Notes: generated by a model from the sequence alone, not told the origin. DNA of 64,000 bases from Deinococcales bacterium (GCA_025352125.1 JANXTZ010000010.1:2118-66117), one strand, 5' to 3'. Counted from the first letter of the stretch, positions 1-64,000 are shown. Made by a program: numbers and translations.

Positions 1-289
1 CGAGCACGGCGTAAGACCCGAGTTTTAAAGCGCTGGCAAGTTTGGAGACATCGTGTGCCATCACCTCGAGCGACAGCGTTTCGAGCGGGGCGGGATCGCT
101 TTGCCCCTGGCTGCGTTCGTCCACCAGAATCAGTCGATACTGGTCGCACAGCGAATCGAGGTAATCGCCAAATTCGTGATGGTCGAGTCCAGGACCGCCG
201 TGAAGCACGATGATTGGAAAGCCCTGTCCGCGCTCATTCACAAAAAGCCGCGTGTCGCCAATGTCCACCAAATGCGCGTGTTCGGTCAT
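1..289 (-). CDS. alpha/beta-fold hydrolase (proline-iminopeptidase-like), N-terminal 96 codons; gene continues past window edge
   Basis: Own translation of the minus strand from ATG 289 gives MTEHAHLVDIGDTRLFVNERGQGFPIIVLHGGPGLDHHEFGDYLDSL... The HGGPG motif is typical of S33 alpha/beta hydrolases. It is absent from the ORF track because the window edge truncates it. Confidence 0.7.
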   Translation of the reverse strand, partial: MTEHAHLVDIGDTRLFVNERGQGFPIIVLHGGPGLDHHEFGDYLDSLCDQYRLILVDERSQGQSDPAPLETLSLEVMAHDVSKLASALKLGSYAVL

Positions 290-367
290 GGTGGCTCGAG
301 CATACTGCCAGAATTGCTGATGCCTCAACGTCCAGCCTCTTCACAACGCTGTACCTGCTCGAGTAAC

Positions 368-1051
368 ATGCAAGCCGTGGAAGCACATTTGCACCTGCAA
401 GCCCTGGGCTTAACCGAATACGAGGCTCGAGCCTACACCGCCTTGCTTGCGCTCGGACGGGCGCAACCCGCAAAAATAGCGCGAAATTCTAAAATCCCAA
501 GACCCAAAGTTTATGAAACCCTGGAACGGCTCGAGGCTCGGGGGCTTGCCACCAGAACCCAACTTTCGCCGCTCGAGTACGCGCCGCTTTCGGCGCGGGA
601 GTACATTGATCGGGCGCAACGCGATTTTGACACGCGCATTGAGGGACTCGAGCGCTCGTTGGCGCGGCTCACGCCTGAACCAGTTCCCGAAGCCGTGTAC
701 CCACTTCGCGGCGAGGCTGCCGTTTTAAGCCTGATCGAGGACATCATGCTCAATGCCCGCCGCAGCATTCACGTGGCTGGAGAATCGGCGCGGCTTGACA
801 AATTTGAGGCTCGAGTCGGACGCGGCGTTGTGGTCACGCGCTCGAGTTTGGAGAATCTGCCTGCAATAGCCGCCAAGGGTCAACACCCGCTTTTAATTGC
901 TCGTGACGGCGAGGCGGCGGTGGTGGCGCACATGGTCAGTGGAGGAGAGGAAGAACCGCACGGGGTTCACACGCACAATCCGGTGATTGTGCGCTTGGTT
1001 GAAGGTTACGTTGCGCTGGCGGAACAACATACCAAATCTGGCAAATCGTAA
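368..1051 (+). CDS. TrmB-family transcriptional regulator
   Basis: ORF 53..1051 trimmed to internal ATG 368, because the upstream part is antisense to the hydrolase gene. The N-terminal winged HTH LGLTEYEARAYTALLALGRAQPAKIARNSKIPRPKVYETLERLEARGL resembles TrmB regulators. Confidence 0.7.
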   Translation: MQAVEAHLHLQALGLTEYEARAYTALLALGRAQPAKIARNSKIPRPKVYETLERLEARGLATRTQLSPLEYAPLSAREYIDRAQRDFDTRIEGLERSLARLTPEPVPEAVYPLRGEAAVLSLIEDIMLNARRSIHVAGESARLDKFEARVGRGVVVTRSSLENLPAIAAKGQHPLLIARDGEAAVVAHMVSGGEEEPHGVHTHNPVIVRLVEGYVALAEQHTKSGKS

Positions 1052-1075
1052 TTCGCTTTTAGCCTCACCTCGAGA

Positions 1076-1912
1076 TCAATCGTTCAGCGACAATGCCATC
1101 TTTGGTTCTATCTTGCCATGAGCGCCCTCGAGAGGTGTGACCGCCGTGCCAACCGCCATAAATTCGATCACGTGCGAACCCCAACCAAAGCTTCGTTCCA
1201 CGACCTTGACACCCACAATGCCGGCGGCGCTCAATTTTGTGGCTTCGGCTTGCATTCGTCCCATCGCCAGCTCTCGAGCGCTGTAGAGCGCCTGCGAGAA
1301 ATTGGTCATTTCGGTGTTGCGCCCCAGCGTTTTCAAAGATTGCATGATGCCCATGTGCGCCACGTGATAGACGCAAGTTCCCATCACCAAACCGAGTGGA
1401 CGATAACCAACTTGACGAAGCGTCCACAAATCTTGTCCCGACAAATCGGAGGTGAACGGTTTGGAATTGGCTTCGCGCCCCTGAAAAACACGGTGCGGTT
1501 CGCCTTCAGGCGCTCGTACCGCCGTGCCAACCGCCACAAATTCGGCAAGGTCTTCGCTCCATTCGGCAAGGCTGACCTCGAGCCTCATGCCGACCACGCC
1601 ATCGGCTTTCAGGGCGTCGGCTTCGTGTTCCATGCGGGTCATGGCGAGTTCTCGAGCGTTGTACATGGCTTGGCTGATGACGGTCAATTCCTGATTTTGA
1701 TTCCAGCCAGCCGTTTGCAAACCGATATGGTAAATCGAACTGCCCAAGACCAAACCGATGGGTTGAAAACCAGCATCTTTTAAAAGTGCAAATTCGTTGA
1801 TGCTCAGGTCGCTGGTAAACATTCCCTGGGCACTCTGTTGCAAGCGAGCGCTGGACTCGGAGGTGAAGTCGGCATCGGTTGAGGCGGCGGCTTTCTTAAA
1901 TCCTGAAAACAT
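1076..1912 (-). CDS. tandem YbjQ/UPF0145-domain protein
   Basis: 278 aa with two similar halves (FTSDLSINEFALLKDAGFQPIGLVLGSSIYHIG and FTSDLSGQDLWTLRQVGYRPLGLVMGTCVYHVA), the pattern of YbjQ-type domains. Confidence 0.7.
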   Translation of the reverse strand: MFSGFKKAAASTDADFTSESSARLQQSAQGMFTSDLSINEFALLKDAGFQPIGLVLGSSIYHIGLQTAGWNQNQELTVISQAMYNARELAMTRMEHEADALKADGVVGMRLEVSLAEWSEDLAEFVAVGTAVRAPEGEPHRVFQGREANSKPFTSDLSGQDLWTLRQVGYRPLGLVMGTCVYHVAHMGIMQSLKTLGRNTEMTNFSQALYSARELAMGRMQAEATKLSAAGIVGVKVVERSFGWGSHVIEFMAVGTAVTPLEGAHGKIEPKMALSLND

Positions 1913-1949
1913 AAAAACTCCTTTTGATCTGCTGTTTTACTGTGCTGTC

Positions 1950-2510
1950 TTACTGCCCAATCAGTTTCTCGAGGCTCGAGCGCAACACCGCGTTTCGTCC
2001 AGCTTCGGTTTCAATGGCGGTCATGACGCGCATCATGAAATCGTCAAACTCGAGTTTCTCGGTTTTGATGCCAACACCACCAACCACATGCGTAGTTGTC
2101 GCATGAAGCGAGCCGCGCTCGAGTCTGAGCTGAAATTGATGATCGCCCAACTCGAGCGCCAAGTTGTTCACGCCCAAAATTGAACCCATGCCCAGTGGCA
2201 AACTGGTTTTGTGTCGAAGGCGAACATGATTTGGTAAGACCGCGTAAAGCCGTTCGGCAAGGCTGCTGAACAAATCGGGAATGTCCGCCCGATGTTCGTT
2301 TAATGCTGCGATCAAAGACTGAAAACCGAAGGTTTTTGCCAAAGATGAAGTTGTTGGGCTGGTCACAACTTCAGGATACGCGATGGACGCAAAAAACGTT
2401 CCGTTTACGACTTGTAATATTTGAGGCACGGTAAACGCTCGAGCACCAGAATACAAATTACAGTTGATATTGGGCAAACTCGAGTTCTCCACAAATGAAA
2501 TAAAAAGCAC
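1950..2510 (-). CDS. hypothetical protein (host)
   Basis: 186-aa ORF with a GTG start at 2510. No recognised motif. CTCGAG density is host-like. Confidence 0.45.
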   Translation of the reverse strand: MLFISFVENSSLPNINCNLYSGARAFTVPQILQVVNGTFFASIAYPEVVTSPTTSSLAKTFGFQSLIAALNEHRADIPDLFSSLAERLYAVLPNHVRLRHKTSLPLGMGSILGVNNLALELGDHQFQLRLERGSLHATTTHVVGGVGIKTEKLEFDDFMMRVMTAIETEAGRNAVLRSSLEKLIGQ

Positions 2511-62696: not shown

Positions 62697-62735
62697 AAAT
62701 CAACATCACAGTTGCGGCTGGTCGTTCGGGTTTTC

Positions 62736-63377
62736 TTAAAGTAAGAATCGAACACCTGTGAAGGCGTTGAACACGCCCACCGTGTTCCAGGTGAAACCCG
62801 CCTCGAGCGAGAAGGCATCGAAGTAATAACGCAAGCCAAGGTTGATGTCAAAACTGTAAACGAAGGCATTGGCAACTGGTCGCACGTAATTTCCGAGGCT
62901 GATCAAACTCAAAGAAAACGTCGCATGGAACGGCTCGAGGTTGAGGTCTGCCATGGGACCGAGCGCGAAATGAAAACCGAGTCCGCCGGGTTGAATCTTG
63001 AAACTGATGTCCGCCCAAGCGCCGACCGCTATCGGTAAGTTGCTGCCGAGCGAGTTGAAAATGACCACGTTGATGCCAGTTCCAAATCCAAATGACACCC
63101 CGTTGCGGCTGGTGTCGCTCGAGGATTGCGAACCGATGGTGATTTTTGGGGTGATGGCAATGTCGAGCGGGAAGCCTCCCAGGTCGAGCGGTGTCTCGTA
63201 ACCCAGCGTGACGCCGATGATGCGCGGGTCCAGAAATTGATAACCGAACGTCACCGAGATGGCGCTTTCGGTGGCGATGGCAACGGGCGCGGTTTGGGCG
63301 TGTGCACTACCCACAGCAAAAATTCCCAGAAACGATACCAGGATGCTCAAAACTCGAGTGAAGCGGATTGATTTCAT
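62736..63377 (-). CDS. secreted beta-rich protein, possible outer-membrane beta-barrel, 213 aa
   Basis: Trimmed to ATG 63377 (GGAGG RBS). Signal peptide MKSIRFTRVLSILVSFLGIFAVGSAHA. The body has alternating hydrophobic beta-strand patterns. Confidence 0.55.
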   Translation of the reverse strand: MKSIRFTRVLSILVSFLGIFAVGSAHAQTAPVAIATESAISVTFGYQFLDPRIIGVTLGYETPLDLGGFPLDIAITPKITIGSQSSSDTSRNGVSFGFGTGINVVIFNSLGSNLPIAVGAWADISFKIQPGGLGFHFALGPMADLNLEPFHATFSLSLISLGNYVRPVANAFVYSFDINLGLRYYFDAFSLEAGFTWNTVGVFNAFTGVRFLL

Positions 63378-63515
63378 TGGTCCTCCTTGAAAACTGAAAT
63401 CAGTATACGGCTCGAGTTGTATGGAAAGCATCAAGAACTGGCTCTGAGAATCAAATGAGTTGTTCTCACGCGTTTGAGATGTTTTGAACTTAAATTTTTC
63501 TAAAGTGATTTGACA

Positions 63516-63531
63516 CCATGGTTAACCATGG
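63516..63531. promoter_or_regulatory. perfect 16-bp palindrome CCATGGTTAACCATGG abutting a TTGACA box; operator candidate
   Basis: TTGACA at 63510-63515, immediately followed by the palindrome, 18 nt upstream of the lipoprotein gene start. Confidence 0.3.
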
Positions 63532-63548
63532 ACTTTGGGAGGTATCAA

Positions 63549-64000
63549 GTGAAACGACTGCTTTGGATGGCTGGTTTGATGATGCTCTTTGCCTGCAACG
63601 ATCAGGCAAAACTCCCAATTTCTCACAACGAATCTGGAGTCCTGGGGAACCTCGAGTTTCAATTGGATTCGGCTGGAACGTCCACAGCCAGTTTTAAACC
63701 TCGAGCCACGCTGACCGATTCGGCGGCAACCTTCACCTCGACGGCGTTCAGCGTGACGGATGCCAGCGGGATTCGCTTTTTTAACGCGACTTTTAGCGTC
63801 AAGAACAACACGGCAAGCAATTTTAAAAACCTGTCCCTGGTGATGTACGACCAGAGCGCTCTAAGCCTTCAAGGTACTGCCATCAAAGAACTGCAAACGT
63901 TTTCTGGCGCGGCAATCACCGATGCGGCAGTCATCAACCGCATCAAACCCACCCACGCCATGGGTACAGCCACAACCATTGACGTGACTCGAGCTGATTT
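63549..64000 (+). CDS. lipoprotein, N-terminal part (continues past window edge)
   Basis: Own translation from GTG 63549 (GGGAGG RBS): VKRLLWMAGLMMLFACNDQAKLPISHNESG..., with lipobox LFAC. The frame stays open to the end of the window. Confidence 0.55.
   Translation, partial: MKRLLWMAGLMMLFACNDQAKLPISHNESGVLGNLEFQLDSAGTSTASFKPRATLTDSAATFTSTAFSVTDASGIRFFNATFSVKNNTASNFKNLSLVMYDQSALSLQGTAIKELQTFSGAAITDAAVINRIKPTHAMGTATTIDVTRAD

Follow-up and report, generated by a model that had tools for sequence, protein, structure and literature searches.

The closest described counterparts of the repeated word examined here are the highly iterated palindromes (HIPs) of cyanobacteria. A HIP exceeds its expected frequency by at least about 15-fold (PMC5861425), and periodicity over tens of kilobases has been described for its copies (Xu et al., 2018). 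Conservation of HIP1, one such word, exceeds codon conservation (PMC5861425). HIPs follow the methyltransferases that recognize them, and one proposal is that a repair ratchet coupled to methylation drives them up to a set point (PMC4390886). Methylation of the word CTCGAG is also on record: CTCGAG-specific m5C methylation has been documented in Halorubrum (PMC8112702), and the hosts and phages of one hot-spring network share methylated CTCGAG (bioRxiv 10.64898/2026.06.24.734251).

The window analyzed here is a stretch of 64,000 bases of Deinococcales DNA with a GC content of 52.6%. An earlier note on this DNA had likened CTCGAG to HIP1 on the basis of hand tallies, all of which proved exact (22 copies in 1–2522, 18 in 39940–42293, and 33 in 7400–15500). 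In total, 388 copies are dispersed over positions 1–64000, making the word approximately 23 times commoner in the window than expected by chance; zero-order composition predicts 17.2 copies, and 100 dinucleotide-preserving shuffles gave 12.0 ± 3.6 with a maximum of 20. CTCGAG is the first-ranked hexamer (776 over both strands), followed among unrelated hexamers by TTTTTG/CAAAAA (154 over both strands), so it is both the top word and above the level of at least about 15-fold that marks a HIP. Markov models of orders 1, 2, 3, and 4 predict 12, 30, 115, and 320 copies, respectively; the observed count lies above all of them, with z = 13 against even the motif-contaminated maximal-order model. These high-order expectations are inflated because 87% of CTCGA pentamers in the window sit within CTCGAG, and because the word dominates its own sub-words, the maximal-order test is an unfair test of refutation here. 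When CTCGAG was masked before estimation, 8–17 copies were expected at every order. TCGA outside CTCGAG is near expectation (247 observed versus 249 expected).

As the earlier note had claimed, the word occurs in all three codon phases (183, 60, and 87 sites, with phase 0 contributing 183 of 330), in genes of both orientations (152 in plus-strand and 178 in minus-strand genes), and in non-coding DNA, where 58 sites give a density of 7.2 per kb compared with 5.9 per kb in coding DNA. The information content of positions flanking the hexamer does not exceed 0.06 bit, the sole trend being a mild preference for G at −1 and C at +1, and no longer repeat unit around CTCGAG was found by flank information in the window. 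The repeated unit is precisely the CTCGAG hexamer, dispersed across frames, orientations, and non-coding DNA in the manner of a HIP. Among stretches of the prophage early region that lack a called gene, 35500–35982 is the densest, with 10 copies in 483 bp, and no longer repeat unit is present there either. Both hairpins named previously are real: at 4797–4828 (plus strand), a 10-bp stem consists of two CTCGAG copies plus CCCG/CGGG (−13.8 kcal/mol, z = −3.2), and at 26541–26567 (plus strand), a 9-bp stem is formed by CCCCTCGAG/CTCGAGGGG (−11 kcal/mol, z = −4.7). Gaps of less than 30 bp between sites number 84 versus 153 expected from random placement, about half, and density appears to reach a plateau at approximately one site per 130 bp.

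The window comprises host DNA on either side of an integrated temperate phage of ~37.3 kb (2532–39885). The prophage is bounded by exactly matching 68-bp direct repeats, attL (2532–2599, plus strand) and attR (39818–39885, plus strand), the latter overlapping the 3′ part of the integration target, a tRNA-Leu(CAG) gene at 39829–39915 on the minus strand. Its genes include those for a terminase, Mu-like portal, major head protein, tail tube, tape measure, and GH19 lysin, together with a CI-like repressor, a D5-type primase-helicase, and an integrase. To the left, host DNA (1–2531) encodes a TrmB-like regulator, a YbjQ-like gene, and one unknown gene, and contains 22 CTCGAG sites; to the right, host DNA (39886–64000) contains 178 sites (7.4 per kb), with gaps below 30 bp again scarce, and a Logan contig assembled from run SRR20627842 has the identical sequence. 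Host density is 7.5 per kb (one per 133 bp), a 28-fold enrichment, and the prophage carries 188 sites at 5.0 per kb (one per 199 bp), an 18-fold enrichment, falling to 3.8 per kb in the structural genes. Prophage and host also agree in tetranucleotide signature (r = 0.95) and in palindrome avoidance (r = 0.84). The suggestion that the same process shaped the resident phage needs a qualification: the shaping did not happen during the current residence, because attL and attR have not yet diverged from each other and the integration site of a relative is unoccupied; the host-like signature is therefore a property of the phage lineage. One prophage gene, for a C5-cytosine DNA methyltransferase (27319–29238, minus strand), is interrupted by an intein with Hint and LAGLIDADG domains (28024–29028, minus strand). 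The exteins carry 7 CTCGAG in 915 bp and the intein none in 1005 bp, and the longest CTCGAG-free stretch of the window (27971–29170) encloses the intein.

CTCGAG enrichment is a lineage trait of a family-level group of uncultured Deinococcales. All 11 related Deinococcales loci, from uncultured metagenome-assembled genomes (MAGs) with GC contents of 45%–65%, are enriched 16- to 28-fold, and CTCGAG is the top hexamer in each of the six clade loci for which hexamers were ranked. Outside the group, the word stands at 0.5 times expectation on the MP1 megaplasmid of the cultured Deinococcus radiodurans and 2.7 times on the pTT27 megaplasmid of the cultured Thermus thermophilus, in both cases at or under the replicon's own codon-usage expectation, and at 0–6 times in other phyla. 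The process was thus correctly described as lineage specific, with the sharing inside a lineage and absence outside it that are typical of HIPs.

Within the group, individual sites are strongly retained. Between genomes that are ~15% diverged, approximately 80% of CTCGAG sites are conserved, versus 31%–44% of other same-phase hexamers. Where the amino acid is conserved, the same codon is kept in a proportion of 0.89–0.95 within CTCGAG versus 0.38–0.76 outside (p down to 1e-13), so conservation exceeds both background and codon conservation, as it does for HIPs. Some sites are common to sub-clades that are just 60% identical in RodA. Once present, a copy is lost 5–10 times more slowly than equivalent synonymous positions elsewhere. 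Orthologous alleles lacking the site mostly differ from CTCGAG by one or two substitutions (range one to four) in otherwise well-aligned genes, and most of the differences are C/T transitions. Singleton gains (7) and losses (11) are about balanced among five genomes; they were polarized by majority alone, because the five-genome tree is star-like. Gains come from many different neighbor words and include transversions and amino acid changes. The copies thus arose in place via ordinary base substitutions, some of which altered the encoded amino acid; HIPs also originate by substitution.

Four other explanations were weighed. The excess could be a by-product of protein composition and codon usage, with frequent Leu-Glu pairs written in preferred CTC and GAG codons; phase 0 is indeed the commonest phase and Leu-Glu is over-used (relative to expectation, 2.28-fold among host genes and 2.6-fold among prophage genes). 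However, a synonymous shuffle that preserves every protein sequence, and so every dipeptide, along with per-gene codon usage, left 50 ± 6 CTCGAG where the genes actually contain 331, and the excess by phase is 5-, 10-, and 12-fold; host and prophage were also tested separately. Phases 1 and 2 thus stand at 10–12 times shuffle expectation, and non-coding DNA is at least as dense in sites as coding DNA. Glu-Leu, in contrast, is not over-used (1.06–1.09 times expectation). Of the 128 host Leu-Glu pairs, 109 (85%) are written CTCGAG, whereas outside this context CTC accounts for 17% of Leu codons and GAG for 32% of Glu codons, and the three Leu-Glu pairs of the intein, within the same gene, are spelled CTGGAA, CTTGAG, and CTTGAG. 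The shuffle, the Leu-Glu codon analysis, and the intein spelling refute this explanation, to which we attach almost no probability; the Leu-Glu excess in proteins is a result of CTCGAG pressure and not its source. The force works on duplex DNA regardless of frame, strand, coding status, and replicon, as the earlier note had argued. Alternatively, the word could travel with a dispersed repeat or a miniature mobile element, or could be an assembly or cloning artifact; the few non-coding clusters and hairpins that contain two copies would fit this. There is, however, no conservation around the hexamer; sites lie at orthologous positions in conserved genes and differ by point substitutions, and the enrichment recurs in MAGs that different studies assembled independently, as well as in the Logan assembly. 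With related loci enriched, flanks uninformative, and alleles differing by point substitution, this explanation is likewise refuted and can be considered virtually impossible.

The best reading, to which we give an even chance, is that CTCGAG is a new highly iterated palindrome whose copies arise through point substitutions and are maintained by a fixation bias with a scaled strength of ~3. Less probable, although it deserves serious consideration, is that the sites, or their density and spacing, are directly useful to the cell and are kept by natural selection without any repair or fixation bias, for example because they label kin DNA for uptake or recombination, identify the cell's own DNA to a defense or repair system, or provide binding sites that organize the chromosome. 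Conservation at synonymous and non-coding positions, the depth of conservation of some positions, and the short-range repulsion between sites are all consistent with selection, and the high density in the phage would suit a self-mark that phages must imitate. Selection has also been argued for HIP1, along with its periodic spacing (PMC5861425), and a methylation-dependent gain in transformation has been reported for HIP1 (bioRxiv 10.1101/2024.09.10.611283; 10.64898/2026.06.24.733823). On the other hand, enrichment is much the same in all kinds of genes, in non-coding DNA, and in a phage, as expected of a process that acts blindly on whatever DNA the cell contains. Selection would also have to act on every one of ~20,000 sites per genome, and nothing within the window points to a reader protein. 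These data do not distinguish a fixation bias from weak direct selection on individual sites, the two being formally equivalent here. A further mechanism would be very-short-patch repair, in which methylation of CTCGAG by an m5C enzyme is accompanied by a Vsr-like endonuclease that restores T:G mismatches in near-sites to C:G, pushing TTCGAG or CTTGAG toward CTCGAG. The E. coli Dcm methyltransferase and Vsr repair do shift word frequencies. C/T transitions are the majority of orthologue differences at sites, and CTCGAG-specific m5C enzymes are known (PMC8112702). The neighbor words nevertheless make this mechanism improbable: transition neighbors are not drained (ratios to expectation of 1.97 for TTCGAG/CTCGAA, 1.10 for CTTGAG/CTCAAG, and 1.13 for CCCGAG/CTCGGG), and transversion neighbors, which lie beyond such repair, show no enrichment from decay of the 388 sites (0.84–1.14 times expectation, a range that excludes the avoided CTGGAG and CTAG-containing words). 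Gains from diverse neighbors, including transversions and amino acid changes, also argue against it, and the effect known from E. coli is small relative to a 23-fold excess.

Under a fixation bias, a single parameter favoring CTCGAG (S of ~3) would cover both the slowed loss and the ~20- to 40-fold enrichment over one-mismatch neighbors and the motif-masked background, although the estimate is rough, with synonymous sites partly saturated and the five orthologues not independent. The numbers further suggest that the bias is weaker at short range. An agent that reads a symmetric hexamer would most likely be a dimeric enzyme, and a lineage-conserved, CTCGAG-specific DNA methyltransferase is the probable candidate, either as an orphan or as a remnant of a XhoI/BsuMI-type system. 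Methylated CTCGAG may steer repair or strand choice so that site-creating changes tend to be kept and site-destroying changes tend to be reverted, and the bias would then have its source in a ratchet of the kind that Elhai proposed for HIPs. Temperate phages with a long history of residence in these genomes would take on the signature, while recently arrived DNA, such as the intein, would not yet have acquired it. A search of the 26.6 kb of host DNA in the window and of ~180 kb from related loci revealed no host gene for a methyltransferase, restriction enzyme, MutH-like protein, or Vsr-like protein. Deinococcota are known to repair mismatches with a MutL endonuclease and without MutH, which makes a methyl-directed ratchet less obvious.

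CTCGAG is also the target of XhoI/PaeR7I/BsuMI-type restriction-modification systems. Active restriction targets are normally avoided, whereas this word is enriched in both host (28-fold) and prophage (18-fold). Avoidance of other palindromes is seen in host and prophage alike; of the 64 palindromic hexamers, 31 fall below 0.15 times expectation in the window, and GGCC stands at 0.03. DNA uptake sequences (DUS of Neisseria and USS of Pasteurellaceae) and Chi resemble CTCGAG in being lineage specific, over-represented, present in core genes, and evolutionarily maintained. They are, however, longer words of 8–12 bases, non-palindromic and orientation dependent, and approximately 10 times or more sparser. 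A typical uptake sequence has 9–12 non-palindromic bases, occurs about once per kb, and is read by a competence receptor; CTCGAG is palindromic, has 6 bases and uninformative flanks, and reaches 7.5 per kb in the host, and no uptake or recombination reader was identified in the DNA read here. Dcm/Vsr repair in E. coli shares with the process proposed for CTCGAG a methylation-linked repair bias that alters word frequencies, but it works through a single transition channel with a small effect, and the neighbor-word pattern of CTCGAG does not match it.

The likeness to HIP1 held on every sequence-level feature compared. HIP1 (GCGATCGC) is, like CTCGAG, a short GC-rich palindrome, over-represented 15- to 300-fold, spread over coding DNA in all frames and over non-coding DNA, inexplicable by codon usage, conserved between relatives beyond codon conservation, spread via nucleotide substitution, and shared by an entire lineage apart from some exceptions (PMC5861425, PMC4390886). 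CTCGAG differs in being a hexamer, not an octamer, in having no GATC or CGATCG core, in belonging to another phylum (Deinococcota), in its higher density (one per 133 bp), and in the clear distortion of the proteome toward Leu-Glu. HIP1 is moreover defined by cognate orphan methyltransferases specific for GATC and CGATCG, and no counterpart was identified in the 26.6 kb of host DNA read. The alternate HIPs of exceptional cyanobacteria (GGCGCC, GCCGGC, and GCSGC) are 5- to 6-base palindromes that are very frequent in particular lineages, and they have been interpreted as side effects of a methyltransferase combined with biased repair, saturating at a set point (Elhai, 2015; PMC4390886). The short-range deficit of CTCGAG fits such saturation. 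A methyltransferase of matching specificity was found in those genomes (Elhai, 2015; PMC4390886), and a comparable link may exist for CTCGAG. Alternate HIPs are known from single strains, whereas CTCGAG characterizes a clade spanning GC contents of 45%–65%, and it would be an independent second example of the kind of unexplained iterated palindrome known from cyanobacteria.

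The hexamer CTCGAG occurs 388 times in the 64,000-base window by exact count (GC 52.6%) and is its most frequent hexamer; 17.2 copies are expected from base composition, and 100 dinucleotide-preserving shuffles gave 12.0 ± 3.6 with a maximum of 20. The hand tallies of the earlier note, which had described the word as a highly iterated palindrome (HIP), agreed exactly with our counts (22 in 1–2522, 18 in 39940–42293, and 33 in 7400–15500). The maximal-order Markov expectation that it had put forward as a refuting test was 320 copies; this was still exceeded (z = 13), and the small ratio (1.21) is an artefact because the model is built from motif-derived subwords, which are the signal under test. 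Inside the motif lie 87% of CTCGA pentamers and 61% of TCGA tetramers, so this expectation was dropped as uninformative and replaced by a background with the motif masked before model estimation, in which orders 0 to 4 predict 8–17 copies. The unit is the hexamer alone: TCGA outside CTCGAG was observed 247 times against 249 expected, and the information content of flanking positions does not exceed 0.06 bit, which makes a dispersed repeat an unlikely cause. An artefact can likewise be discounted as the source of the excess.

Synonymous codons were shuffled within each gene of a 68-gene model, with the protein, its dipeptides, and per-gene codon usage kept. The shuffled genes contained 50 ± 6 sites (maximum 71) compared with 331 observed. 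By codon phase, the excess over the shuffle was 5-, 10-, and 12-fold (phases 0, 1, and 2), and site density was 7.2 per kb in non-coding DNA versus 5.9 per kb in coding DNA. Together these results rule out codon bias as the cause and bear out the earlier proposal that the driver acts on DNA rather than on protein; codon and dipeptide bias, which the earlier note had named as the alternative source of the excess, falls far short of the observed count. For the excess of Leu-Glu pairs, causation runs from DNA to protein. Relative to amino acid composition, Leu-Glu is present at 2.28 times expectation in host genes and 2.6 times in the prophage, compared with 1.06–1.09 times for Glu-Leu. CTCGAG spells 109 of the 128 host Leu-Glu pairs, whereas CTC accounts for 17% of Leu codons where the next residue is not Glu, and GAG for 32% of Glu codons where the preceding residue is not Leu. 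In orthologue alignments, site gains were coupled to residue changes at variable positions (Thr to Glu, Asn-Cys to Ser-Ser, Ala to Glu, and Ser to Leu).

Conservation was assessed by comparing the window with five genomes over aligned DNA that is 81–86% identical. Approximately 80% of CTCGAG sites were intact across genomes, compared with 31–44% of other hexamers in the same codon phase. Codons whose amino acid was conserved remained unchanged more often inside the motif than outside it (CTC, 0.89 versus 0.54; GAG, 0.94 versus 0.52; CGA, 0.91 versus 0.38; TCG, 0.95 versus 0.76; Fisher p down to 1e-13). In RodA, some sites are common to sub-clades with 60% protein identity and 15 points of GC between them. 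Full conservation across the six genomes was seen in 32 of the 66 site columns, and the 7 singleton gains were similar in number to the 11 singleton losses, as expected near equilibrium. Several gains among orthologues involved more than one nucleotide (for example, ACC to GAG and AATTGC to TCGAGC); a templated "writing" mechanism for these was rejected as unsupported because the branch lengths seen at unconstrained positions leave room for gains made step by step.

Taken as a ratio, log-retention within the motif and outside it yields a relative rate of substitution of approximately 0.1–0.19 at synonymous positions. Under mutation-selection-drift, the relative fixation rate of a disfavored change is S/(e^S − 1), where S is the scaled strength of the fixation bias, here favoring CTCGAG; the rate then corresponds, in rough numbers, to an S of about 2.7–3.7. 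At equilibrium, this model gives an expected excess, e^S, of 15- to 40-fold. The observed excess is 23- to 48-fold against the motif-masked background and approximately 17- to 27-fold against individual one-mismatch neighbors, which matches the prediction in this rough one-parameter check. At the level of S, weak selection on each site and a bias of fixation or repair are indistinguishable.

The neighbor words argue against repair through a single channel and for a force that disfavors every loss and favors every gain. No one-mismatch neighbor was drained except CTAG-containing words and CTGGAG, which are avoided for their own reasons. Transition neighbors stood at 1.97, 1.13, and 1.10 times expectation, and because none is depleted, Vsr-type repair of T:G mismatches is unlikely; transversion neighbors stood at 0.84–1.14 times expectation, below the level that neutral decay of 388 sites would leave. 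Gaps shorter than 30 bp were about half as frequent in host-type DNA as under random placement (84 versus 153 pooled; 9 versus 34 in the host part of the window), a deficit compatible with saturation of the process or with a penalty on self-complementary words that lie close together.

The 37.3-kb prophage is bounded by identical 68-bp att direct repeats (2532–2599 and 39818–39885) that overlap the 3' end of tRNA-Leu(CAG), and because these delimit it, the earlier labeling of 1–2522 as host and 7400–15500 as prophage was correct. It encodes an integrase, a CI-like repressor, a D5-type primase-helicase, terminase, a Mu-like portal, head, tail tube and tape measure proteins, and a lysin. Searches for portal relatives gave no IMG/VR match and only 23–26% identity to Bacillus, Gordonia, and Rhodococcus phages in INPHARED; IMG/VR matches to the primase-helicase were at only 22–28%. 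Site density was 7.5 per kb in host DNA and 5.0 per kb in the prophage overall, with 3.8 in its structural genes, 6.3 in its early region, and 7.3 in its left arm. Near-miss Leu-Glu spellings were more common in phage than in host genes (CTCGAA, 20 versus 3; CTTGAG, 14 versus 2). The tetranucleotide signatures of prophage and host correlate at r = 0.95 with the motif's own tetramers excluded, a value equal to that for orthologous DNA of sister species, and palindrome avoidance is common to both (r = 0.84; GGCC at 0.03 times expectation). The view that the phage was shaped by the same process as its host is therefore upheld by the shared signature, but not for the present integration: the att copies are identical, and one related locus (L004) has a single att-like sequence at a tRNA-Leu without a prophage, so the signature was gained by the phage lineage in a long association with the clade, the uncultured Deinococcales genomes related to the window.

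Other features of the integration site were also recorded. In each att copy, the outer 8–11 bases contribute the 3' arm to a strong hairpin whose other arm differs between the two copies (2504–2539 and 39786–39828). The host-side hairpin has a perfectly paired stem of 14 bp and a loop that contains CTCGAG (−16.5 kcal/mol), and the phage-side hairpin has a 17-nt stem with 88% pairing. Because the outer att bases pair with partners on both sides, integration appears to rebuild a terminator-like hairpin beside tRNA-Leu. Positions 2873–3272 of L004, between a TrmB-like gene and tRNA-Leu, hold a 71%-identical homologue of the 134-residue prophage ORF next to the integrase (38111–38515); this homologue was either left behind by an earlier integration or is a host gene that the phage picked up. 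Two host genes of the window (1076–2510) are missing at the L004 locus.

On the minus strand of the prophage, a C5-cytosine methyltransferase gene (27319–29238) is interrupted by a 335-residue intein with Hint and LAGLIDADG homing endonuclease domains (28024–29028). The insertion directly precedes the PCQ motif's catalytic Cys, a residue that also serves as the +1 splice nucleophile. The spliced enzyme aligns across the junction with M.HaeIII, its best solved relative (E = 2e-7), a similarity too distant for its target to be inferred. The 1005 bp of the intein contain no CTCGAG, compared with seven in the 915 bp of the exteins, and coincide with the longest CTCGAG-free stretch of the window. 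At the mean prophage density, approximately five sites are expected (Poisson probability of none, approximately 0.006). All three intein Leu-Glu pairs are spelled otherwise, and its composition is foreign, with several palindromes that are avoided elsewhere. The intein is recently arrived DNA without the word, which indicates that enrichment accumulates in place over time.

Host genes in the window encode a xanthine-dehydrogenase-family protein, RodA, a LysM-M23 peptidase, DUF5682 and VWA/CoxE proteins, an AlkZ-like glycosylase, a LysA-type decarboxylase, and an ABC-transporter binding protein. Their nearest relatives are in metagenome-assembled genomes labeled "Deinococcales bacterium" (RodA identity, 94–97% in five and about 60% in five); proteins identical to the window's were found only in the Logan assembly of run SRR20627842. 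We retrieved clade loci L001–L011, plus L042 (GC 65%) from a more distant genome, the useful one of three loci returned by a metagenome scan with DUF5682. CTCGAG was enriched 16- to 28-fold in 11 of 11 clade loci and was the commonest hexamer in all six in which hexamers were ranked, across a GC span of 45–65%. By comparison, 28 loci of other phyla from the same search stood at 0–6 times expectation, D. radiodurans megaplasmid MP1 at 0.5 times (6 sites versus 17 by its own codon usage), and T. thermophilus pTT27 at 2.7 times (37 versus 66). The process is thus lineage-specific, as had been suggested. A tblastn search of plasmids with RodA returned irrelevant matches only. The LysM-M23 peptidase gene (45298–47691; six LysM domains and a C-terminal M23 domain), with internal DNA repeats at approximately 45.7–46.2 kb, shows the lowest conservation in the syntenic region (76% identical to clade loci L003 and L006).

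Palindromes other than CTCGAG are strongly avoided. Of the 64 palindromic hexamers, 31 stand at less than 0.15 times expectation in the window, and 16 do not occur in it at all; for GGCC, 8 copies were counted where 305 are expected, and CTAG and TATA stand at 0.07 and 0.09 times expectation. TTCGAT/ATCGAA occurs 62 times against 15 expected by the maximal-order Markov model, with the palindromes TTCGAA (1 copy) and ATCGAT (8 copies) avoided. The same extreme avoidance is seen in clade loci L002–L011 and L042 and in the prophage, and it suggests a lineage with a very large repertoire of restriction systems. A scan of IMG/VR for three CTCGAG within approximately 100 bp gave at least 120 loci (L056–L175; e.g., L119, L168, L169, L150, L085, and L156), a sample ascertained by the search itself. 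Among the matches listed, CTCGAG was the commonest hexamer in 23 of 106 loci of at least 4 kb, with 3–7 sites per kb, GC of 58–70%, and 2–6 times the synonymous-shuffle expectation. Most of the CTCGAG-rich loci listed neither avoid GGCC nor share the clade tetranucleotide signature, and other host lineages may also be CTCGAG-rich. The high-GC contigs L085 and L169 had no INPHARED phage match by BLAST and were not counted as clade phages because their tetranucleotide signatures differ.

CTCGAG arises by substitution, is maintained on all replicons at the level of DNA, is specific to the lineage, and saturates at short range. A symmetric hexamer would most probably be read by a dimeric DNA enzyme, and by precedent the driver may be a cognate methyltransferase with a methylation-coupled repair ratchet that halts at a set point. 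HIPs have been linked to cognate methyltransferases and to such a ratchet (Elhai, 2015, PMC4390886), CTCGAG-specific m5C methylation occurs in Halorubrum (PMC8112702), and a preprint on one hot-spring interaction network refers to methylated CTCGAG common to hosts and phages (bioRxiv 10.64898/2026.06.24.734251). No host methyltransferase was found in approximately 27 kb of window host DNA and approximately 180 kb of relatives' loci, and a methyltransferase motif search gave nothing in all clade loci and nothing consistent in CTCGAG-rich viral loci. Nor was any connection to the motif found for the AlkZ-like DNA glycosylase gene (55509–56588) or for the cluster at 48880–53312, which encodes DUF5682 (755 amino acids), a uracil-DNA-glycosylase-superfamily protein, and a VWA/CoxE-like protein. 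The main rival to a bias is that the sites have a function for which they are directly selected, such as a kin-DNA tag for uptake or recombination, a self-mark, or an element of chromosome organization. It fits the same data, and a kin-DNA tag is now proposed for HIP1 of cyanobacteria (bioRxiv 10.1101/2024.09.10.611283; 10.64898/2026.06.24.733823). Tentatively, and with considerable doubt, we suggest that a family-level lineage of Deinococcota independently evolved a palindrome system of the HIP1 kind on domesticated XhoI-type methylation. The sites would act as a densely spaced mark of strand or self that is used in repair, recombination, or DNA uptake, under a pressure that rewrites proteins (Leu-Glu) and forces the mark on temperate phages.

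Cyanobacterial HIPs have been known for some thirty years, and it is still disputed whether they have a function or arise as a side effect of methylation and repair. To our knowledge, all well-studied cases come from one phylum, and ancestry and mechanism are inseparable for that reason. CTCGAG is an independent replicate in an unrelated phylum, a different word with the same sequence-level hallmarks, and, if the HIP1-like reading is true, the cause of HIPs becomes testable by comparing the two phyla. A conserved CTCGAG methyltransferase in clade genomes would strongly support the methylation hypothesis; clade genomes without one would weaken it for such palindromes generally. In practical terms, this uncultured lineage and its phages can be binned with CTCGAG as a simple marker of composition, and XhoI would cut clade genomes to fragments of approximately 130 bp. 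Open-access papers and preprints yielded no account of a bacterium in which CTCGAG is hyper-abundant. At the sequence level, the word does behave as a HIP: like HIP1, it is palindromic, enriched at least 15-fold, dispersed in all frames and in non-coding DNA, independent of codon usage, conserved beyond codons, of substitution origin, and distributed across its lineage. It is unlike HIP1 in word, length, density, and phylum, and also in its visible effect on proteins, the co-occurring extreme avoidance of other palindromes, and a temperate phage that shares the signature; the distorted proteome, the short-range saturation, the mark-sharing phage, and the intein as an internal control are hallmarks that this case adds.
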